DNA of 64,000 nt from an uncultured Myxococcia bacterium (GCA_942493285.1 OW818691.1:950875-1014874); one strand, 5' to 3'; shown: positions 30,161 through 61,644, numbered from the stretch's first letter. Numbers and translations: made by a program. Notes: generated from the letters alone by a model not told the origin.

Positions 30161-30515
30161 GACTCTCCTCTCGCACTCGCCGTCGGCGCTCCGTATCCCC
30201 GGAGATGCCGGGCCGGAAGATTCCGCCCCGTGTTCTGGCCACTGCCCTTGGCCGACGATTCTTTCGCTCTGCCAGTTGTTCGTCTGGAGAGCGGAGACGT
30301 TCTGCCCCGTCCGGGGGGCGTTCTAGGCGAGGCTTCCGAAAAGTGCAAGGTCGAAGGGGAGGGCGATAGACGGGGGTTTCGCTGGGTCTGACAAGCGGTA
30401 TCCGGGACGGTCGTGGCCCTGCCGTAGGGGTATGGTGGGGCGGCGCGGTTGGAGGTTGGACATCCATCGTGCGTCGTCCTTGACAGCGCGGGCGGCGTGG
30501 GAGAGGGCAGCCGCG

Positions 30516-31529
30516 ATGGCGATGCATGTCAGGGGGCGCGTAGTCGAGGTGCACGGGATGCTGGTCACGGTGCGCCTCGCGGACGTCGTGAGCGGGGCCG
30601 CGGACGACTTACACGGGCTCAGGGTGCGGGTGCGCCCGCCGCGCGACCGCATGAAGCCGGTCATCGGCGACCTGTGTGAGGTCGAGCTCGATGCGACGGA
30701 TGGGGCGTCGCTGCGCGCGGCCGGGCGGGTCGAGGCGCGGGTCGTGGCGATTACGCCGCGGACGCGGGTCTACGAGCGTCTCGGGATGCCGCGCCAGGTG
30801 CTCGCAGCAAACGTGGACCGGCTGGTCATCGTGTCGGCGGTCGACCCGGAGCCGAAGCCGGGGCTCATCGACCGGATGTGGGTGGCGCTCGCCGATAGCC
30901 GCGTCGAAGTATTGCTGGTCGTAAACAAATGCGAGCTGCCTGGGCGCGCTGCAGCGCTGGCACTGCTGGCTGACCATGCGCGGGCCGGGGCGACGTTGGT
31001 GCCGACGTCGACGCGGACCGGCGAGGGCGTGAGCGAGCTCGCCGCGATGCTGACGACCGGGGTGTCGGTCGTGGTCGGCCACTCCGGGGTGGGCAAGTCG
31101 TCGCTCGTCAATGCGCTGGCTCCGGGTGCGAACCTGCTCGTCGGCGACATCAACGAGGCGACGCGTAAAGGGCGGCACACGACGACGGTTGCGACCTGTC
31201 ACGAGCTTCCGGGGGCGCCTGAGTCAATCCTCGTCGACACGCCGGGTGTCCGGGCCTTCTCGCTCGAGTCGCTCGCGGAAGCCGAGGCGGCGGCTCGGTT
31301 TCCTGGGCTGGCCGCGCTCTCCGAGGAGTGTCACTTCGCGGGTTGCCTGCACAACGCCGAGCCGAGGTGCGCCGTGATCGCGGCGATCGCGGGTGGGGCC
31401 GACGACGTCGGGCGCCACCGGGAGCGTTGGCGGGCCCTGGCGTTGGCGATGCGTGAAGAGGCGGGGCCGGTCGATGCCAAGAACCCACGCAAGGCCTCAC
31501 GCGCGCCGGGATCGTCGCGTCCCCGATAG
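30516..31529 (+). CDS. rsgA: Ribosome small subunit-dependent GTPase A
   Basis: Circularly permuted GTPase: NKCE, GHSGVGKSS, GRHTT, DTPG; zinc motif CHFAGCLHNAEPRC. Start inferred (ATG 30516 or 30522). Confidence 0.93.
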   Translation: MAMHVRGRVVEVHGMLVTVRLADVVSGAADDLHGLRVRVRPPRDRMKPVIGDLCEVELDATDGASLRAAGRVEARVVAITPRTRVYERLGMPRQVLAANVDRLVIVSAVDPEPKPGLIDRMWVALADSRVEVLLVVNKCELPGRAAALALLADHARAGATLVPTSTRTGEGVSELAAMLTTGVSVVVGHSGVGKSSLVNALAPGANLLVGDINEATRKGRHTTTVATCHELPGAPESILVDTPGVRAFSLESLAEAEAAARFPGLAALSEECHFAGCLHNAEPRCAVIAAIAGGADDVGRHRERWRALALAMREEAGPVDAKNPRKASRAPGSSRPR

Positions 31530-31803
31530 AATCTTCCGCGTCGTCAGAATCTTCAGAATCGGCTGCACCGTCGCGTCGCCGTTGTCCAGGTTGAAAGGGC
31601 CGCCCCCGCGGCAACTTCGTCGACCACGGTTTCGAGGAGGGAGAGTCTCGCGAGGTCCGGATTCGGGGGCCACGCGTTCATGGCTCGAGTGCCCGCAGGG
31701 GGCGGCTTGTGAGTCGAACCGGGCAGGGTCGGGGGCGATTCCGAAAGCGTTGTTGAATGCTGTCGGGGGCGCTCACGACTTGTGGAATGCGAGATCCTCT
31801 GCC

Positions 31804-33339
31804 ATGCGTTCGGTGCCTGCCCCGAGGCCTGGCGGGCCGGTTTTGTTGCCACCCAAGACGCGCCTCGCGATACTGGACGACGTGTTGCTTCTACCTCTGA
31901 CATGTGCGCTGGCGCTGAGCGGCGCGGCCGCGGGCGGGCCGGTGCCCGACGACGTGGTGCTGCCGCCGCTCGGCGACGTCATCCATACCGACCGGCTCGG
32001 GATCGCGATGCCGATCGAGAACCCGCCCGGCCAGAACGCGTTGCGCAACTTCCACCTGGCGCTTGTTCGGACGGCCCACCGGGAGGACGACCCGCAGACA
32101 CCGACGCGTGAAGACCAGGCGCGAATCGTGGTGTGGGGGGCGAGCCATGTCGCAGGCGACATGTTCACAGGTCTCGTGCGCAGCGAGCTGAAGTCGCGTT
32201 TCGGCGACGCAGGGCTGGGGCTGCTCGTGCCGGCCAAACCGTGGCGCGACTACTACAATCGTGACGCGAACATCAGCTACTCGGACAACTGGGACTCGAG
32301 CTGGGTGTCGCGCCGCAACAAGCGTGAGGACGGGCGCTACGGGCTCGCGGGGGTCGCGTTCTCGGCCGACAAACGCAGCGCCTGGGCGCGGGTGTCGACC
32401 GCCAAACAGAGCTCGCAGGGGCGCGAGATCGATAGGGTCGAGGTCTGGTATTGGCGCGATGAGCGCAGCGGGGACTTCATCGTCGAGATCGACAAGCGCT
32501 TCTCGAAACGTGTGAAGACGAAGGTCGACAAGCGAAAGAACGAGGCGCCCGGGTTCGCGGTGTGGAGCTACGACGTGAAGCTCGGGCGGCACGAGGTCGA
32601 GATCCGGCCGGCCGGCAACGGCAAGGTCACGTTCTTTGGCATCGTGCTGGACCGCAAGGGACCTGGCGTCGTGATGGATTCGCTCGGCATCAACGGCGCG
32701 CGCGCGACCGACCAACTCGATTGGGATGCAGGGCTGTTCACGCAGCAGCTGCAGCGGCGCGACCCCGACCTCATCGTCATGGCCTACGGGACCAACGACA
32801 TCGGCGACGACGAGCCGCCGAGCGAGTACGAACGTAAGCTGGACCTGGTGGTGAATCGGGTGCGGTCGGCCGCGCCCGACGCGAGCTGTCTGTTCGTCGG
32901 GCCGTCCGATCGGCCGGTGAAGGTCGAGGTCGACGATGAAGAGTACCTGGAGGCGCTGACCTCGGCAGGGCTGCCGGCGACCCTCATCGACGACGCGCCG
33001 AGCCGGAAGAAGAAGAAGCTCCTGTTCTCGCGTCGCCCGCGCCAGCAGCAGATCATCGATGTGCAGAAGAAGGTCTCGTGGCGCTATGGCTGCGGCTACT
33101 GGAACTGGGCGGGTGCCATGGGCGGCGACCTGTCGATGTTGAAGTGGGTTCATGCGGATGCGCCGCTCGGGGCGCCGGACTATGTGCACCTGACCAAGCT
33201 CGGCTACGAGCGTATCGGCCAGCTCTTCTGGGATGCGCTGATGGGCCCCTTCGAAGGGGGTGTGCCGACGCTGAAGCCCGGCGGCGGGCCGACGTTCCGT
33301 GTGCCCGGACGCGGTCGACCGGATAGCCGCACGCCCTGA
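31804..33339 (+). CDS. SGNH/GDSL hydrolase family protein (PatB/Ape-like two-domain type)
   Basis: Blocks WGASH, GINGAR, YGTND, DYVH; hydrophobic N-terminal segment. Start moved to ATG 31804. Confidence 0.8.
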   Translation: MRSVPAPRPGGPVLLPPKTRLAILDDVLLLPLTCALALSGAAAGGPVPDDVVLPPLGDVIHTDRLGIAMPIENPPGQNALRNFHLALVRTAHREDDPQTPTREDQARIVVWGASHVAGDMFTGLVRSELKSRFGDAGLGLLVPAKPWRDYYNRDANISYSDNWDSSWVSRRNKREDGRYGLAGVAFSADKRSAWARVSTAKQSSQGREIDRVEVWYWRDERSGDFIVEIDKRFSKRVKTKVDKRKNEAPGFAVWSYDVKLGRHEVEIRPAGNGKVTFFGIVLDRKGPGVVMDSLGINGARATDQLDWDAGLFTQQLQRRDPDLIVMAYGTNDIGDDEPPSEYERKLDLVVNRVRSAAPDASCLFVGPSDRPVKVEVDDEEYLEALTSAGLPATLIDDAPSRKKKKLLFSRRPRQQQIIDVQKKVSWRYGCGYWNWAGAMGGDLSMLKWVHADAPLGAPDYVHLTKLGYERIGQLFWDALMGPFEGGVPTLKPGGGPTFRVPGRGRPDSRTP

Positions 33340-33373: not shown

Positions 33374-34851
<1,478 letters not shown>

Positions 34852-34855
<4 letters not shown>

Positions 34856-35034
34856 CGTTGCGCATCCAGTCTTTCGACCTCGGTGGCGGCCTTGTGCGCC
34901 TCCTCGCGCGCAGTCTCGATGGCCAGAGCCAGCATCGCCTTGTCGTCTCGAGCGAGCGCGATGCGGGCAACCTCGAGCTGCAGGATGACGCCGTTCAGGC
35001 GGCCGCGCAGGGCGTGTTTGGGGAGCTCGTTCAT
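34852..35034 (-). CDS. 60-aa stand-alone HisKA/DHp-like protein
   Basis: ATGA overlaps with both neighbours; KHALRGRLNGVILQLEVAR resembles an H-box helix and is followed by a second amphipathic helix. Confidence 0.75.
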
Positions 35035-36167
35035 GTGTCGGACCGTCGTTGAGCGCGAAAGGCGATGCGCTCGGCGATGAGGAGCTTGGCGGTGTCGAGC
35101 AGGCGGCCGGGCGAGACTGGTTTCTCGAAGATCGCGGCGACCTTGCGACTGAGGCTCGGCGGGTACTGGCCGGCTCCGAGCCCGCTTACCACGATCATTG
35201 GGACACGCGGATCGAGCGAGCTCATGCGGTCGATGTGGAGGCCGATTTTTTTGGCGTCGAGGTGGAGGTCGGTGACGACGAGGTCGGGCCTCAGCTCGTG
35301 GAAGGCCATGACGGCCTCATTGGTCGACGACACGCTCGTGACCTGGTGCCCACTCGCTTCAAAGAGGATGTGGAGCGCCTGGCGCGTCGCGTGGTCATCA
35401 TCGACGACGAGGACACGGGCGCCATGGTTCGTCGGGGTCAGCTCGAGGTCGGTCAACGGCCGTGCCTCTGCAATGGCTGCGACGTCTTCGTCGGCCAGAG
35501 TGGGCAATGCAAAGACCGCCACCGTACCCTGATTGCCGCTCTCGAGTCGGAGCGTCCCGCCGTGCGCCTCGACCGTGGAACGAGCGAGGTACAGGCCGAG
35601 CCCAGTTCCGGTTTGGCGTGTCGTGAAGAAGGGTTCGAAGACCCTGTCTACGAGGTCTGCGGCAATCCCAGGGCCGTCGTCGATGATGCGGATCTCGCCC
35701 GCAAGGTTCACGCTGATCGCGACGAATCGGGTCGCCGCATCGACGGCGTTGTGCAGCAGATTGATGGCGACCTGCTGCAGCTCGCCGGGGTTGCCCTCGA
35801 CCCACGGACCCGCGCTGGTATCCGACGATCCAAAGACGGCGCCGATTTCGATGCCTCGGTTCCGAGCCCTCACCAGGGCGACCTCCCGGGCCTCGCGGAC
35901 AAGGGCCGGCAGGCTGACCCTGGTCCTTTCCCGGCTCGGCGTCGGGCGCACCATGCTGCGGATACGCTCCACGACCTGGCTTGCGACCCGCGCCGTCTTG
36001 AGGATGGCTTCGGCGTGGACCAACAGGGCCGGGTCGCGGGTCTGCGCCCGAAGGAGGCCCGCGTGGCTCACGATGGCGGTCAATGCGTTGTCGAAGTCGT
36101 GGGCTACACCCGCCGCCATTCGGCCAAGCGCGTAGATGGTTTCATCCCCAGAATTCTCGGTTACCAA
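35031..36167 (-). CDS. Hybrid histidine kinase (DHp-CA-REC) with no apparent sensor domain
   Basis: AHDFDNALTAI H-box, QVAINLLHNAVDA N-box, DDGPGI, FFTT, GTGLGL; C-terminal receiver VVDDD...VTDLHL...EKP. Start inferred at TTG 36167 (AAGAGG upstream). Confidence 0.9.
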   Translation of the reverse strand: MVTENSGDETIYALGRMAAGVAHDFDNALTAIVSHAGLLRAQTRDPALLVHAEAILKTARVASQVVERIRSMVRPTPSRERTRVSLPALVREAREVALVRARNRGIEIGAVFGSSDTSAGPWVEGNPGELQQVAINLLHNAVDAATRFVAISVNLAGEIRIIDDGPGIAADLVDRVFEPFFTTRQTGTGLGLYLARSTVEAHGGTLRLESGNQGTVAVFALPTLADEDVAAIAEARPLTDLELTPTNHGARVLVVDDDHATRQALHILFEASGHQVTSVSSTNEAVMAFHELRPDLVVTDLHLDAKKIGLHIDRMSSLDPRVPMIVVSGLGAGQYPPSLSRKVAAIFEKPVSPGRLLDTAKLLIAERIAFRAQRRSDT

Positions 36168-36239
36168 GGGTTGCCTCTTTTGTGCGGTCCCAGGCTGTCC
36201 TGCTGCGTCAGCGTATTGCCTTTTCGTGGCCTGAGCCTC

Positions 36240-36248
36240 TAGACTATA
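36240..36248. promoter_or_regulatory. Overlapping back-to-back -10 hexamers (candidate bidirectional promoter)
   Basis: TAGACT on + (36240-36245), 7 nt before ATG 36253; TATAGT on - (36248-36243). Confidence 0.45.
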
Positions 36249-36252
36249 GGTC

Positions 36253-38079
36253 ATGGTGAACAGTTCTGAAACCCATGGGGGACGCGTAGTTGCCCCAACC
36301 ATCATCCCGCTCATCGGTGACCCCGACGAGCGGGTCGATGACCCGTCGGAACTCATCGGTTGCATTCTGGATGGTCGTTATCGGGTCGACTCGGTGGTCG
36401 GCGCAGGTGCCACATCAGTCGTCCTCGAGGCGCGTCATGTCATGCTCGGCCGGCGTGTCGCGCTCAAAGTGCTCCACCCATCGCTCGTCGGGCTACCAGA
36501 TGTGCGGGCCCGCTTCGAGCGTGAAGCGCGCGCAGCGAGCAGCTTGTCACATCCGAACATCGTTGCCGTAACTGACGCCCGTGTAAAGGAGGGTGGACTC
36601 CACTATATGGCGATGGAGCTGCTCGAGGGTGACGACCTCTGCACCTGGGCGGGCACCCAATCTCCCGTCTCGACGACGACCATCGCTTCGATCGGGGCGC
36701 AAGTCGCCGACGCGTTGACGGCGATGCATACAGCCGGGTTCGTCCACCGGGATCTCAAGCCGGAGAACATCATCGTCTTGCGGGACGCCGCCGCCGACGG
36801 CGATGTCCGAATCAAGCTCATCGACTTCGGCATCGTCGCGCACCTGGGCGCGGGTGACCACGGGCCTCGACTGACACGAAGCGACCTCACCCTGGGTACG
36901 GTCTTCTACATGTCTCCCGAACAGGCCGTGGGTGGGAGCGTCGATGGTCGCGCCGACATCTATGCGCTCGGCTGCATCCTCTGGGAATTGGCCACGGGGA
37001 GGCCGCTCTTTGGGGCGGGCACACCGACCGAGGTCCTGGTGCGTCAGATCGGCCAGGCGGCCGAGCCACCCTCGGCGTTGAATCCGGGGATTCCTGCCTG
37101 GCTCGACGCGGTCATCCTGAGATGCCTGGCGAAGAAGCCCGAGCAGCGTTTCCAGACATGCGACGAGCTCAGACTCGCCCTCACCCGAGAGCCCGCAGCA
37201 GCGACCGCCGAGAAGCCCAGACGTGTGTGGGTGCATTCGGCTATCGGCGCAGCTCTGGGCTTTGCTGCCGCGACCGTGCTGGCAATGACGGGCGGCATCG
37301 GCGTCACGGCAGGTGGTGATCCCGTCGCCGATGGTCACCCGCCTCCCGTCGCGGTCGCTGGGGCGCCACCTTCGAGTGGAGTGGAGCCCTCAGCCGGAAT
37401 TGCGGCGCTGCCAGGTCAGGTGCCAAGAACCCAGCCCTCAACGACCCACGATTCACGAGCCGAGCAGCCCCTCGGCGTAGGACCAGACCCCGGAGGCGCG
37501 CCTGACGCGAACGCCCAGGTGCGTCTTGTTTCGGAGCCGAGCCGCGGCGAGCCGAGTCCCGAGCCGACGGCTCAGGTCGAGGACGCGGCGACCGCGGCAC
37601 AGGCTTCGCCCCGGCCCACCTCCTTGGCAGCATCGGGTGCGTCGCGGTCTTTGACCAGGCAAGCGAAGCGGACGGCCGAGGGTCCGAAAACGACCGCGGC
37701 GGAAGCCGTGCCGCTCGAGGTCGAACCGCGGAGGGTCTCGCTGACGTTTGCCATCGAGCCGCGTGGCGCGACGGTGACCCGCAATGGGCAAGTGCTCGGA
37801 AAGACGCCGCTCACAATCGAGGTCGTCGCGTCCGAGACGCAGGTCACTTATGAGGTGAGCCACCCCGAACGTGTAGGCCTGCGTCTCGTTTATCCACACG
37901 AAGAGGACAGGCTCGTGTCGCGAACCCTGGATCGAATCGTCGCCGCCGAGCGGACCCCGCATCCGACGGAACACCCGACAGCGGGTATCGGGCGCCCGGG
38001 TACGGACGCGTCGGCGCCTCCCGAGCTGTGGCGGCCTCCGAAGCCCTCTTCCACGAGCCACGGCAAGACTTCGCCATGA
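36253..38079 (+). CDS. Ser/Thr protein kinase with TM segment and C-terminal PEGA domain
   Basis: VGAGATSVV, VALK, HRDLKPEN, DFG, GTVFYMSPEQ; TM AIGAALGFAAATVLAMTGG; PEGA IEPRGATVTRNGQVLGKTPL. Confidence 0.92.
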   Translation: MVNSSETHGGRVVAPTIIPLIGDPDERVDDPSELIGCILDGRYRVDSVVGAGATSVVLEARHVMLGRRVALKVLHPSLVGLPDVRARFEREARAASSLSHPNIVAVTDARVKEGGLHYMAMELLEGDDLCTWAGTQSPVSTTTIASIGAQVADALTAMHTAGFVHRDLKPENIIVLRDAAADGDVRIKLIDFGIVAHLGAGDHGPRLTRSDLTLGTVFYMSPEQAVGGSVDGRADIYALGCILWELATGRPLFGAGTPTEVLVRQIGQAAEPPSALNPGIPAWLDAVILRCLAKKPEQRFQTCDELRLALTREPAAATAEKPRRVWVHSAIGAALGFAAATVLAMTGGIGVTAGGDPVADGHPPPVAVAGAPPSSGVEPSAGIAALPGQVPRTQPSTTHDSRAEQPLGVGPDPGGAPDANAQVRLVSEPSRGEPSPEPTAQVEDAATAAQASPRPTSLAASGASRSLTRQAKRTAEGPKTTAAEAVPLEVEPRRVSLTFAIEPRGATVTRNGQVLGKTPLTIEVVASETQVTYEVSHPERVGLRLVYPHEEDRLVSRTLDRIVAAERTPHPTEHPTAGIGRPGTDASAPPELWRPPKPSSTSHGKTSP

Positions 38080-39005
38080 CACGTGATTTTCGGCCGTTGT
38101 TGCAGAGGCTCTGCGCGCTTCTGGTGGCTCTCGTCACGTCGACCTCTGGCCAGGTGTTGGCGTTGCCGTCGAATCCGGAGGCGGCTTATCTCCGGTACGA
38201 AGAGGGCGAAGCAGCGTTTGCAGAGAAGCGGTTCGACGACGCGGCCACTGCCTTCGGCGCCGCCTTCGAGCTCCATGCGGAGCCGGCCTACCTCTACAAC
38301 CAGGGCCTTGCCCTCGGATGGGCCGAGAAGCTCGCGGCGGCAATCGCCGTGTTCGAGGTCTTTCTTGTCAGGTTTGCGGCCGAGCCACGTGCGGCGGAGG
38401 TCTCCCGGCGGCTCAGCGAGCTGAAGAAGCGCCGCCAGGACGCGCGTGCGACCATCCTCGTCAACACCATCCCAGGCGGGGCGATGGTGCGCATCGCCGG
38501 GAGCGAGGACCTCACCTGTCAGAGCCCGTGCGAGCTCGAAGTCGACCCCGGTGTGGTCGCGCTCGAGGTGGAGCTCAACGGAAAGAAGCGGCGTGAGACA
38601 CGCGAGCTGAGTGCACGGGAGCGCTGGTCCGTCGGCTACGACTTGAGTCCGGCACCAGGGGCTGCGGCTTCGGCACACGTAGGGAGCTGGTTGTCTTTTG
38701 GAGTCGGAGCGACGGCGCTCGTAGTCGGGACGGTGTTCGCCATCGCGGCCCAGGGGAGTTACGACGAAGGCCATAGGCTGGCAGACGCGTCGCCCCTGGA
38801 CGGGGAGGACTATGGTCGCCTCTCCGACCTTCGAAAGGAGGTACGAACTCAGAGCCTGGTTGCCGATACCAGCTTCGGGATCGCATTGACGGGGGCTTTG
38901 TTGGGCGCTGTGTTATGGTTCCTCGACGATGATGCGGACGACCGGGGAGGGGTTCCCGGTGCCGCGTCGACTAGGCAGATCAACAAGGCCGCATTCCACT
39001 TCTGA
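38076..39005 (+). CDS. Secreted TPR + PEGA domain protein with hydrophobic C-terminus
   Basis: Signal peptide, TPR-like YEEGEAAFAEKRFDDAATAF...YLYNQG, PEGA VNTIPGGAMVRIAG; ATGA overlap with the kinase. Confidence 0.82.
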   Translation: MTRDFRPLLQRLCALLVALVTSTSGQVLALPSNPEAAYLRYEEGEAAFAEKRFDDAATAFGAAFELHAEPAYLYNQGLALGWAEKLAAAIAVFEVFLVRFAAEPRAAEVSRRLSELKKRRQDARATILVNTIPGGAMVRIAGSEDLTCQSPCELEVDPGVVALEVELNGKKRRETRELSARERWSVGYDLSPAPGAAASAHVGSWLSFGVGATALVVGTVFAIAAQGSYDEGHRLADASPLDGEDYGRLSDLRKEVRTQSLVADTSFGIALTGALLGAVLWFLDDDADDRGGVPGAASTRQINKAAFHF

Positions 39006-39994: not shown

Positions 39995-41731
39995 TCATCG
40001 CATGGCCGTCAAAGAGACCGTGACGATGCGTGTGTCCGGCAGCGGGTCGAGCCGCAAAGCCTCTGGGCGATGGTCCGGGTGGACGAGCAGGACCGCCACC
40101 GGGGCATCGAGGTCGAGAGCGAGTGGTGTCTGACCGCGGAGTCGACCGTCAGCGAAGACGTTCGCCCCCTGGGGTTGTGACTGCAGGTAGACGCGTGGTG
40201 CGCGTGCCACACCGTCGGCGGTGACACTTGCGCGGGCCGGAGCTGCGGTCGGACGAATTGGGGCGGCTGGGTCGCCGGGCGTCGCGCTTGCCCTGTTGGC
40301 GGCGGCCGCGAGCGGCGGGACGTCGGCATATCGCTCTTGCGGTGGGGCGGGGTGGTGGTCCAAACGCGGCGTGATGCTTGCCGTGGGCTTCACGACCTCG
40401 GCGACGCGAGCTGAGACAACCCGTGGGGCTGGCGGGGCCTTCGTAATAGGCGTGGCTACGCTTGTGGCTCCGACGTTGGTAGCGGTGAGCGTGGCCGTCA
40501 TCGCCCCGGGGCTGGCTGTGGGCGCCGGAGCTTTCGGCGTCACGGCGACTGGTTCGGCTTCGGACCCAGAGGCGGGCGATGGTGCTTCGATGGGCGGCGA
40601 AGGTCGGGTGCTGGGAGCGACGCCTGCGACCCTGTCGGCCTTCGTGACGCTTGGGACGGTCGATGGGGGAGGAGGTGCCAGGGCAACGATCTGCTGCCCG
40701 TCGAGGTCGGACCCGAGGGGACCGAGGACCCCGACCAGCACGAGTCCGAGTGCAGCGCCCGCGAAGAAGGCGAGCCGGCTTCTGCGCCGGGCCGGACGCG
40801 GAGTCGTTGGGGCCGTCGTCGCGTTGGCCGGCCGCGCCGACGGGTACGTGGACAGGTTGGTCACGGCGGTTGGTGAAAGCGGCGCGACGCTGGGTGCCGG
40901 GACCACGGCGCCGGGTGTTGGGACCAGGCCCAGCGGAGGCTCAGCGCACACAACCTCCTCGGGTTTGTCGGTGACGACGAGGCGCGACGAGATGATGACC
41001 TTTGGAACAGGCTCGGCCGGGGCCTCGAGCCTCGGCGGAGACGGCCTGACTCCTTCGAAGGTGCCGCTGACGGCCATGTTCCGACCGTCTCCCACGAATA
41101 CGACCGCCGTCGGTGGGGCTTCTCGGACGACGCGTCGGCGGGATCGGCGACGCAGCTGACCTTCATCGACCAGCGGAAACGCGGGCATGGGCGGTGGCGG
41201 GAGGTGATCGAGCTCGGGCGGTGGAGCGGCCGTCTGCACTGCATCGGGCTCGTCGGGTGGCAGGGCAGGGGGGCTCGCCACATCCTCGACGGTCGCCCCG
41301 TACGGGTCGACGAACCACTCCAGGTCGGCCTCGTCCATCGTGTCCACTTCAGGAGTCGTCGTGGGCACGGTTGGTGCTGCTTCGAGAGTCGTCGTGGGCA
41401 CGGTTGGTGCTGCTTCGAGAGTCGTCGTGGGGACGGTTGGTGCTGCTTCGAGAGTCGTCGTGGGGACGGTCGGTGCCACTTCGAGCGTCGCAGTGGGCAC
41501 GGTCGTCGCCACATCGAGAGTCGCAGTGGGCACGGTCGGTGCTGCTTCGAGAGTCGTCGTGGGTACGGTCGTCGCCACTTCGAGAGTCGCAGTGGACACG
41601 TTCGGTGTCACTTCGAGGGTCGTCGTGGGCACGGTCGTTCGTTCCGCCCGGGCATCCGGAGAGGCTTCGGGTGCCAGGCTCGGCACGGCCTGGACGGCGG
41701 TCCTGGGCTTTCGTTTGCGCTTCGTGGTCAT
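39995..41731 (-). CDS. Single-pass membrane protein with N-terminal Thr-rich 11-aa repeats and C-terminal PEGA domain
   Basis: GGAGG SD; TM LAFFAGAALGLVLVGVLG; PEGA LQSQPQGANVFADGRLRGQTPL. Confidence 0.8.
   Translation of the reverse strand: MTTKRKRKPRTAVQAVPSLAPEASPDARAERTTVPTTTLEVTPNVSTATLEVATTVPTTTLEAAPTVPTATLDVATTVPTATLEVAPTVPTTTLEAAPTVPTTTLEAAPTVPTTTLEAAPTVPTTTPEVDTMDEADLEWFVDPYGATVEDVASPPALPPDEPDAVQTAAPPPELDHLPPPPMPAFPLVDEGQLRRRSRRRVVREAPPTAVVFVGDGRNMAVSGTFEGVRPSPPRLEAPAEPVPKVIISSRLVVTDKPEEVVCAEPPLGLVPTPGAVVPAPSVAPLSPTAVTNLSTYPSARPANATTAPTTPRPARRRSRLAFFAGAALGLVLVGVLGPLGSDLDGQQIVALAPPPPSTVPSVTKADRVAGVAPSTRPSPPIEAPSPASGSEAEPVAVTPKAPAPTASPGAMTATLTATNVGATSVATPITKAPPAPRVVSARVAEVVKPTASITPRLDHHPAPPQERYADVPPLAAAANRASATPGDPAAPIRPTAAPARASVTADGVARAPRVYLQSQPQGANVFADGRLRGQTPLALDLDAPVAVLLVHPDHRPEALRLDPLPDTRIVTVSLTAMR
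41345..41635. repeat. About 9 tandem 33-bp repeats encoding TVPT(T/A)TLE(A/V)A(P/T)
   Basis: gtcgtcgtgggcacggttggtgctgcttcgaga and close variants, head to tail without spacers. Confidence 0.9.
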
Positions 41732-61313: not shown

Positions 61314-61644
61314 GGGGACCTCGGGTGGTGGTGAGTCCGAGGTTGTCCTGAGCAAGGCGAGTGCCAGCGTCGCGACACGCAGAACGGCCACATTGGGCTG
61401 GGCAGCGCGCCAGGATGTAAAGTCAATTTACTGCCAGCCGTAGCCCTGGTTGCGGATGTAAGACCGGTTGCCGTCCCGAGTTGGGGGCGAGGCTTGTTTG
61501 CCCTCAATGGTGACTCGGCGCTGATTCTGGGGTTGGCCGGGTTCGATGTGGAGGCACGGCTCGCCATGCACTCGAATGACGACCCGGCAACGGCAGGTTC
61601 GAGGCAGGCGCACGGCTCGCATTGCCCAGGGGGTGACGACGAGC

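Follow-up and report, generated by a model that had tools for sequence, protein, structure and literature searches.

The 64,000-nucleotide stretch of DNA analyzed here (the window; GCA_942493285.1 OW818691.1:950875-1014874), from an uncultured Myxococcia bacterium, carries on its minus strand a module of three genes. An open reading frame (ORF) of 60 amino acids (aa) lies between a gene for a hybrid histidine kinase that has no sensor domain and a gene for an NtrC-type response regulator that would act with sigma-54. The small ORF is predicted to encode a free-standing helical hairpin resembling the DHp domain of histidine kinases, and we propose that it may serve as a histidine phosphotransferase between the products of the two flanking genes. 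The features of the module are listed below, each with the evidence that supports it.

34852..35034, minus strand: gene for a 60-aa stand-alone DHp-like hairpin, the proposed H2 (the ORF itself, the overlaps, homologs of 52-92 aa, a hairpin modeled by AlphaFold2 (AF2), and a coding signature)
35014..35016, minus strand: codon of His7, the candidate phospho-acceptor (invariance across the family and HisKA register)
34951..35016, minus strand: core of helix 1, from His7 to Ala28, H-x-L-R-G-x-L-N-G-V-x-L-Q-L-E-V-A (identity over 10 loci and column conservation)
35031..36365, minus strand: hybrid histidine kinase without a sensor, DHp-CA-REC, with His89 and receiver Asp366 (Pfam, ortholog alignments, and an AF2 model)
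33374..34855, minus strand: NtrC-type sigma-54 response regulator, REC-AAA+-HTH_8 (Pfam, NCBIfam, and receiver alignment)
35031..35034, minus strand: ATGA overlap between the stop codon of the kinase gene (TGA) and the start codon of the small gene (ATG) (ORF coordinates)
34852..34855, minus strand: ATGA overlap between the stop codon of the small gene (TGA) and the start codon of the regulator gene (ATG) (ORF coordinates)

The small ORF (34852..35034) translates as MNELPKHALRGRLNGVILQLEVARIALARDDKAMLALAIETAREEAHKAATEVERLDAQR, the hybrid kinase ORF (35031..36365) as ACATGAAC, and the sigma-54 regulator ORF (33374..34855) as CGATGACG. A preliminary description of the locus had singled out the small ORF as a tiny gene locked between a hybrid kinase and a sigma-54 regulator, and ORF calling and Pfam agree with its coordinates, with both ATGA overlaps, and with the domain make-up that it gave to the neighbors.

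We compared the gene order in the 13 loci that have enough flanking sequence, namely the window, L001, L006, L007, L008, L010, L011, and L015 to L020. The core order is the same in all 13: a sensor-less hybrid kinase of about 340-445 aa is followed by the small ORF, which is followed in turn by the sigma-54 activator. Two of these loci, L019 and L020, were found from the kinase side, and each still has a 65-aa ORF with the motif. The orthologs of the kinase form a set of 25 clusters that is separated by a sharp break from generic PAS/GAF hybrid kinases. At the junction of the small gene and the regulator gene, 10 of 12 loci have a 4-nt overlap (ATGA or GTGA); in the remaining two, the genes overlap by 1 nt and are 3 nt apart, respectively. 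In the relatives, the spacing between the kinase gene and the small gene lies anywhere between -11 and +32 nt, and a Shine-Dalgarno sequence resembling GGAGG is often present. No gene for a histidine-containing phosphotransfer (HPt) domain is listed among the neighbors, either in the window or at the related loci, which accords with what had been said earlier of the window itself.

Two scenarios may explain an ORF of this size in such a position. First, it could be a chance ORF, or an untranslated spacer between two genes, in high-G+C DNA. Alternatively, it may be a gene under selection. The 10 kb of 67% G+C DNA around the locus hold 97 ORFs of at least 40 aa; therefore, ORF length alone is no evidence either way. 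Spurious ORFs of such a size are very frequent in the window, and one database match to the family (L014, described below) turned out to be exactly such an antisense ORF. Yet a chance origin does not account for an amino acid sequence whose conservation, with an invariant motif, persists down to 37-45% identity, nor for a position kept in 13 loci with Shine-Dalgarno-like sequences or start/stop overlaps. The frame also bears a coding signature, with a G+C content of 0.78-0.97 at third codon positions (GC3) versus 0.39-0.53 at second positions (GC2), and in the conserved core third-position differences are about twice those at positions 1 and 2. The ratio of nonsynonymous to synonymous substitution rates (dN/dS) is 0.17 in the sole close pair; across distant pairs the ratio (0.3-1.2) is uninformative because extreme GC3 constrains synonymous sites, and we set those pairs aside in favor of the close pair and the pattern across codon positions. 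Between the window and L001/L006, the small protein is 70% identical and its neighbors are 65-69% identical. Judged from homologs, synteny, and the coding signature, the 60-aa ORF is a genuine gene, as the preliminary description had supposed, and we give a chance ORF or spacer practically no credence. The same description expected annotation pipelines to miss the gene easily, which proved mistaken: it is called in every locus, its NCBI members are named "hypothetical protein," and only the domain assignment is missing.

The family to which the small protein belongs was assembled in several searches. A word-indexed search gave four relatives of 59 aa with about 70% identity, and ten further proteins of 58-75 aa emerged when 1.84 billion representatives were searched exhaustively with HMMER. 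With profile searches, the total reached about 39 clusters, all of 52-92 aa. No fused or multidomain homolog of the hairpin was found at E<=1e-3 among the 1.84 billion representatives. The possibility that the ORF is a split fragment of a larger kinase, which had been raised at the outset, thus finds no fused homolog in its favor in either the HMMER or the profile searches. A single long HMMER match was discarded as a spurious leucine-rich-repeat protein.

Family members come from Myxococcota-type metagenome-assembled genomes (MAGs) and from metagenomes, and the named ones are labeled Deltaproteobacteria or Myxococcota. Among species-representative genomes, a profile of close relatives found no locus, and a profile narrower than the full 35-sequence one found three, two of them real and both in Myxococcota MAGs; with two real loci in that set, the family is narrow. 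A metagenome scan for the family gave no match. The third locus (L014 3558-5111, Armatimonadetes MAG UBA11051) was rejected as a spurious ORF antisense to a real 573-aa gene. It has an LNGVVLQLE pattern at the end of a long antisense ORF, a reminder that antisense frames in high-G+C DNA can readily pass for helical proteins rich in Ala and Leu.

AF2 models the small protein as a two-helix antiparallel hairpin (helices 4-28 and 32-59) with a mean predicted local distance difference test (pLDDT) score of 91.9, the fold that the preliminary description had anticipated. Conservation across the family was read from an alignment of 35 sequences. His7, on whose conservation the earlier proposal turned, is invariant in 35/35, and it is also present in the L019 and L020 ORFs. 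Leu18, Glu21, and Ala26 are likewise 100% conserved; Arg10, Leu13, Asn14, and Gln19 reach 97%, Gly15 91%, and Leu20 at least 90%. The H-x-L-R-x-x-L-x-x-[IV]-x3-E pattern noticed at first is present, and the family signature of helix 1 can be written as H-x-L-R-G-A-L-N-G-V-x-L-Q-L-E-V. Counting from the His, H+1 is Asp or Glu in 14/35 (40%), the window copy having the Ala reported earlier; H+3 is Arg in 34/35; H+4 (Gly11) is Gly in 29/35 (83%); and H+5 is Ala in 25/35 and Pro in 0/35. The resulting H-x-x-R-G is a motif of the HxxKG type, by resemblance only.

The near-invariant positions of helix 1 include exposed ones (R+3, G+4, N+7, G+8, Q+12, and E+14) as well as buried ones (L+2, L+6, V+9, and L+13). 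Since both kinds are fixed, helix 1 would present a conserved interaction surface around the His, and as far as sequence can tell, a DHp alpha1 that docks on receivers would be conserved in this way. Helix 2 is conserved only in a heptad of core Ala and Leu. The hydrophobic residues at a/d positions (L9, L13, V16, L20, A23, and L27 in helix 1; A38, A42, A46, A49, and L53 in helix 2) appear compatible with a bundle. Mean pairwise identities over 10 loci set the parts of the module in the following order.

Small protein, helix 1: 67.5%
Kinase DHp: 57.5%
Regulator receiver: 53.9%
Kinase receiver: 44.4%
Kinase CA domain: 44.3%
Small protein, helix 2: 33.7%

Helix 1 is the most conserved part of the kinase-hairpin-receiver relay proposed here, and it is equaled only by the AAA+ ATPase domain of the regulator (67.8%).

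The fixed residues beside His7 could also point to an auxiliary phosphatase, which would dock on the phosphorylated receiver of the regulator or the kinase and position a water molecule with Asn14, Gln19, or Glu21. Spo0E, CheZ, and DHp domains in their phosphatase state are models for such a protein. Asn14 and Gln19, at 97%, and Glu21, at 100%, lie on helix 1; two members have Asn at H+4, where the phosphatase motif of HisKA is placed; and phosphatases of the Spo0E type are helical hairpins of comparable size. However, the consensus contains none of the known motifs, neither the HisKA E/DxxT/N, nor the DxxxQ of HisKA_3 and CheZ, nor the CheX ExxN, nor the Spo0E SQELD, which the family alignment lacks. 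H+4 is Gly in most members, there is no Spo0E-like match in Pfam, and a phosphatase would not explain why the His never varies. We regard a phosphatase as quite improbable.

The two partners of the small protein have the parts that a phosphorelay would use. The kinase matches HisKA in Pfam at 26.6 bits, just below the 26.9 cut-off, together with HATPase_c and Response_reg. The H-box, AHDF[DN]N, shows no variation in the ortholog alignments of 7 and 10 loci and is conserved at 90% or more in a 26-sequence set, in which the few exceptions include N-terminally truncated entries. The N, G1, F, and G2 boxes and the receiver residues D322/D323, D366, S394, and K415 are conserved in the orthologs, with few exceptions in the 26-sequence alignment. 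An AF2 model of kinase residues 48-444, built on 26 orthologs (mean pLDDT, 77.6), comprises a DHp hairpin, a CA domain, and a receiver. The longest kinase ORF, which starts at 36365, overlaps by 113 nt the 5' end of a divergent Ser/Thr kinase gene that starts at 36253. The first 70 or so residues are unconserved, and orthologs have only 10-35 residues before the DHp; the true start is probably internal, because these N-terminal residues match no ortholog. No obvious alternative start leaves space for a promoter, and M38, at 36254, would abut the Ser/Thr kinase gene.

A kinase with its own H-box beside a second His-bearing hairpin recalls split CheA. In such an arrangement, the CA domain of the kinase would phosphorylate His7 directly, and the hairpin would be a detachable pool of phospho-His that feeds the regulator. 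The two H-boxes do share H-D-[FL]-x-x-A-L-x-x-[IV]-V, and a kinase that has no sensor domain might be regulated through its choice of partner. However, an acid at H+1 is required for the autophosphorylation chemistry of HisKA, and only about 40% of family members have one. Moreover, the kinase's own H-box is intact in all orthologs that cover it, and its universally conserved receiver would have no explanation. A split-kinase substrate therefore seems very improbable to us.

The regulator matches Response_reg, Sigma54_activat, AAA_lid_14, and HTH_8 in Pfam, and NCBIfam places it among regulators of the NtrC/AtoC/ZraR type. Its key residues are Asp54, Thr82, Phe101, Lys104, and the GAFTGA motif at 219-224. 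Both receivers of the module keep the acidic pair, the phospho-Asp, the Ser/Thr, and the Lys, and they differ elsewhere. In the kinase receiver, the alpha4 segment is Gly/Pro-rich and unconserved and is modeled by AF2 as coil (395-404) with one helical turn; its K-3 position is variable (I/V/F/R), with no conserved aromatic residue. In the regulator receiver, Thr82 and a Phe or Tyr at K-3 are kept in 10/10 loci. The receiver of CckA is an intermediary receiver with a degenerate fold and no allosteric switch, and CtrA has a terminal receiver (PMC9981736). Because the alpha4 and K-3 contrast matches the distinction between CckA and CtrA, the kinase receiver may be of the intermediary type and the regulator receiver of the terminal type, an assignment that is indicative and not diagnostic.

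We propose that the hairpin is a DHp-only, dimeric His phosphotransferase that completes an H1-D1-H2-D2 relay, a reading to which we give somewhat better than even chances and within which we infer dimerization and phosphotransfer. Each hairpin would pair with a second copy to form a four-helix bundle. The sensor-less hybrid kinase would autophosphorylate at His89, and the phosphoryl group would move from there to Asp366 of the kinase's own receiver. His7 of the hairpin would then accept it from Asp366 and hand it on to the sigma-54 activator at Asp54, and the activator would switch transcription on; flow might also run backwards, with the hairpin as a drain. The features that are absent or variable in the hairpin (an acid at H+1, Thr or Asn at H+4, Pro at H+5, and a CA domain) speak for the relay, as they are the ones needed by a kinase and dispensable for a shuttle. 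We put at about even the chance that a DHp hairpin of 60 residues, without any second domain, works in full as a phosphotransferase that links a sensor-less hybrid kinase to a sigma-54 activator.

The HisKA-like affinities of the hairpin also speak for the relay. Among the 35 relatives, there are sub-threshold Pfam matches to HisKA in 12 and to HisKA_3 in 6. Ten members were inspected singly; eight match HisKA, and in 8/8 the family His falls on profile position 11, where the neighboring kinase's own His89 also falls. In profile searches against the PDB, the best natural match is the DHp domain of QseC (3jz3), aligned His on His, with E values of 0.004 and 0.002. The top matches in these searches were designed repeat proteins rich in Ala, Glu, and Arg, matching helix 2 only, which we took as a composition effect and set aside. 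No member of the 35 matches Hpt (PF01627) at E<=1, and no family member matches SPOB_a, HPTransfase, Spo0E-like, or Sda in Pfam.

Measured against what defines the established families, the protein has a conserved candidate phospho-acceptor His in the H-box register of HisKA and, according to AF2, the antiparallel two-helix hairpin. It does not have the H-box residues of HisKA kinases/phosphatases (the acid at H+1, Thr/Asn at H+4, and Pro at H+5) or a covalent link to a CA domain, all 39 members being 52-92 aa long. An HPt protein has four helices in one chain, and here there are two helices in 60 aa; Spo0B and ChpT have a CA-like alpha/beta domain, and here the chain ends after helix 2. The defining features of these families place the protein outside HisKA, HPt, and Spo0B/ChpT alike, and no existing domain model covers the hairpin family. 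The sequence comparisons point, weakly but consistently, to a divergent free-standing HisKA-like DHp.

A number of results weigh against the relay. The Pfam scan for HisKA suggested in the preliminary description gave a divided answer: the relatives match in the correct register, but all of them below threshold (the best HisKA (PF00512) score is 21.9 bits, versus a gathering cut-off of 26.9), and neither Pfam nor NCBIfam gives any match to the window hairpin itself, even at E<=10. A Foldseek search of the PDB with the AF2 hairpin returned generic hairpins only (rubrerythrin, ferritin, Vipp1, ROP, and the HK853 DHp), with a best E value of 0.43; therefore, the fold search is unable to classify the protein. 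The hhalign comparison with the DHp of the partner kinase is weak, with a probability of 6.7%, and the hairpin is therefore not a recent duplicate of that domain. Phosphorylation and dimerization of the hairpin are read from its sequence and from a single-chain model, and the near-invariant Asn14 and Gln19 would suit an amide-based phosphatase as well. To our knowledge, every DHp-type shuttle described so far (Spo0B, ChpT, and PhyT) retains a second domain. In addition, the kinase could phosphorylate the regulator directly, since its H-box is complete; in that case, the kinase receiver would serve for regulation or as a sink, as receivers do in some other hybrid kinases. The earlier statement that a hybrid kinase needs a His shuttle was in this regard too strong, as such kinases "typically," not always, use an HPT (the published wording is "typically involves"; PMC11481889).

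Some of these results would also suit a modulator that is never phosphorylated. Such a protein would mimic a DHp on the DHp/CA domains of the kinase, as a heterodimer partner (the alternative raised in the preliminary description) or as an antikinase similar to Sda, or it would dock on a receiver. Small helical hairpins that regulate kinases do exist, such as Sda acting on KinA, and the tight co-translation with the regulator suits a stoichiometric binding partner; a fold search that yields generic hairpins only is in keeping with this as well. The Sda antikinase of Bacillus subtilis, whose target is a histidine kinase, resembles the present protein in being a helical hairpin of very small size. 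Sda binds the DHp and blocks autophosphorylation, and it has no conserved phospho-acceptor His and no H-box, whereas the His and the H-box-like helix are the most conserved features of the present family. An inhibitor needs no invariant His exactly on the phospho-His position of HisKA, the very low similarity to the DHp of the partner kinase speaks against heterodimerization, and a match to the Sda family is absent among the Pfam families listed. We consider a modulator of this kind unlikely.

A second copy of the module lies elsewhere in the same 9.29-Mb genome; its hairpin (P0039) is 76 aa long and its hybrid kinase (P0048), again sensor-less, 397 aa. The locus orthologous to this second copy is L010 1242-3684, and P0038 is the ortholog of P0039. 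The two hairpins of the genome differ at H+1, +5, +15, +17, and +18, and these differences may insulate two relays from each other.

The closest precedent for the proposed shuttle, as judged from its published description, is HmrB of Caulobacter crescentus (CCNA_03325), a 108-aa putative atypical HPT encoded beside the hybrid kinase HmrA (PMC11481889). AlphaFold predicts HmrB as an alpha-helical hairpin, which has been modeled as a homodimeric four-helix bundle and proposed to be a shuttle from a hybrid kinase; the evidence is genetic only, and H50 and H74 are the candidate His residues (PMC11481889). Like the present protein, HmrB is a small, all-helical hairpin that adjoins a hybrid kinase and has no HPt signature in Pfam. 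HmrB differs in length (108 versus 60 aa), lacks an HxxKG-like motif, and belongs to another phylum and to an adhesion/motility pathway linked to HmrC, whereas a HisKA-type H-box is recognizable in the present family. Relative to HmrB, the present family is about half the size, has an explicit HisKA-like H-box, and occurs in a different phylum and pathway.

In the DHp-type shuttles Spo0B, ChpT, and PhyT, the DHp is accompanied by an additional domain (PMC3433190, PMC5898713). Spo0B of Bacillus subtilis and ChpT of Caulobacter share with the present protein a His-bearing hairpin, which in those proteins forms a dimeric four-helix bundle, and a place between two receivers (PMC3433190; PMC11481889). 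Spo0B connects Spo0F to Spo0A, and ChpT connects the receiver of CckA to CtrA/CpdR (PMC3433190; PMC11481889). They differ in keeping the C-terminal CA-like alpha/beta domain, whereas the present protein stops after the hairpin, and no Spo0B or ChpT chain was found at E<=10 in three PDB profile searches.

The DHp domains of QseC (3jz3) and EnvZ resemble the protein in their hairpin and heptad register. With QseC the match extends to L at H+2, R at H+3, L at H+6, N/T at H+7, V/I at H+9, Q at H+12, and E at H+14, and V+15 and A+16 are shared as well. In contrast to HisKA DHp domains, the present protein stands alone, with a variable H+1, Gly at H+4, and never Pro at H+5. Monomeric HPt proteins (Ypd1, ArcB-HPt, ShpA, and LuxU) share the proposed role of H2 between two receivers, and the H-x-x-R-G found here echoes their HxxKG motif and conserved Gly at H+4 (PMC6341664; PMC11481889), although the diagnostic value of HxxKG has been questioned (PMC11481889). 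HPt proteins differ in being longer, single-chain four-helix bundles; a 60-aa hairpin alone cannot form four helices.

Two further genes accompany the module.

36253..38079, plus strand: Ser/Thr protein kinase with a C-terminal PEGA-like region, divergent to the module (Pfam Pkinase, 1.7e-41; ortholog beside the kinase in related loci)
38028..39005, plus strand: tetratricopeptide repeat (TPR)-like/PEGA-like protein downstream of the Ser/Thr kinase (tblastn orthologs; TPR matches in orthologs)

In the window, the second of these proteins has a weak PEGA match alone, and the Pfam lists of related loci contain TPR matches for its orthologs. The TPR-like gene and the Ser/Thr kinase gene lie divergently upstream of the kinase-hairpin-activator operon in the 13 loci with flanking sequence, and the TPR-like ortholog stands beside the Ser/Thr kinase in 9/9 loci tested by tblastn. 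At L011, the set of Ser/Thr kinase and TPR-like genes is found on the opposite side of the module. In six loci, the gene next after the pair encodes a protein of about 200-260 aa in which Pfam recognizes no domain. Because the Ser/Thr kinase and the TPR-like protein are conserved neighbors in every locus examined, Ser/Thr phosphorylation is suggested as the input to the sensor-less histidine kinase.

Downstream of the regulator lie genes for an RsgA-type ribosome GTPase (30432-31529, plus strand) and for a 648-aa protein with a GDSL/SGNH hydrolase domain at its C terminus (31393-33339, plus strand); neither is kept beside the module in other loci. On the other side, a 578-aa ORF (39995-41731, minus strand) consists in its N-terminal part of many tandem units of about 11 residues (TTLEAAPTVPT and variants) and has a weak PEGA-domain match at its end. 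A scan of the window found no sigma-54 promoter consensus near the operon. The sole exact TGGCAC-N5-TTGC match in the window, at 61352-61366 on the minus strand, may be due to chance; shuffling gives an expectation of 3.7 matches with at most one mismatch in the window.

Hybrid kinases far outnumber recognizable HPt proteins in many genomes, and missing His shuttles are for that reason a practical gap in maps of two-component networks. If the proposed relay is correct, the helix pair of a DHp alone would suffice for a His-Asp relay, the extra domain of Spo0B and ChpT would be dispensable, and the hairpin would be the smallest H2 module known. The signature H-x-L-R-G-x-L-N-G-V-x-L-Q-L-E-V could then be used to search for shuttles overlooked by domain databases, as could a strategy of looking for tiny ORFs wedged between a hybrid kinase and a regulator. 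A phosphotransfer module of 60 residues would also be a handy part for structural studies and for the engineering of synthetic relays. In the organisms themselves, the pairing with a Ser/Thr kinase and a TPR-like protein suggests, from gene order, a link between eukaryote-like kinase signaling and a His-Asp relay. If the relay is real, the hairpins would make up a family, so far without annotation, within a clade of Myxococcota, and the histidine kinase that they serve is possibly controlled by the adjacent Ser/Thr kinase.

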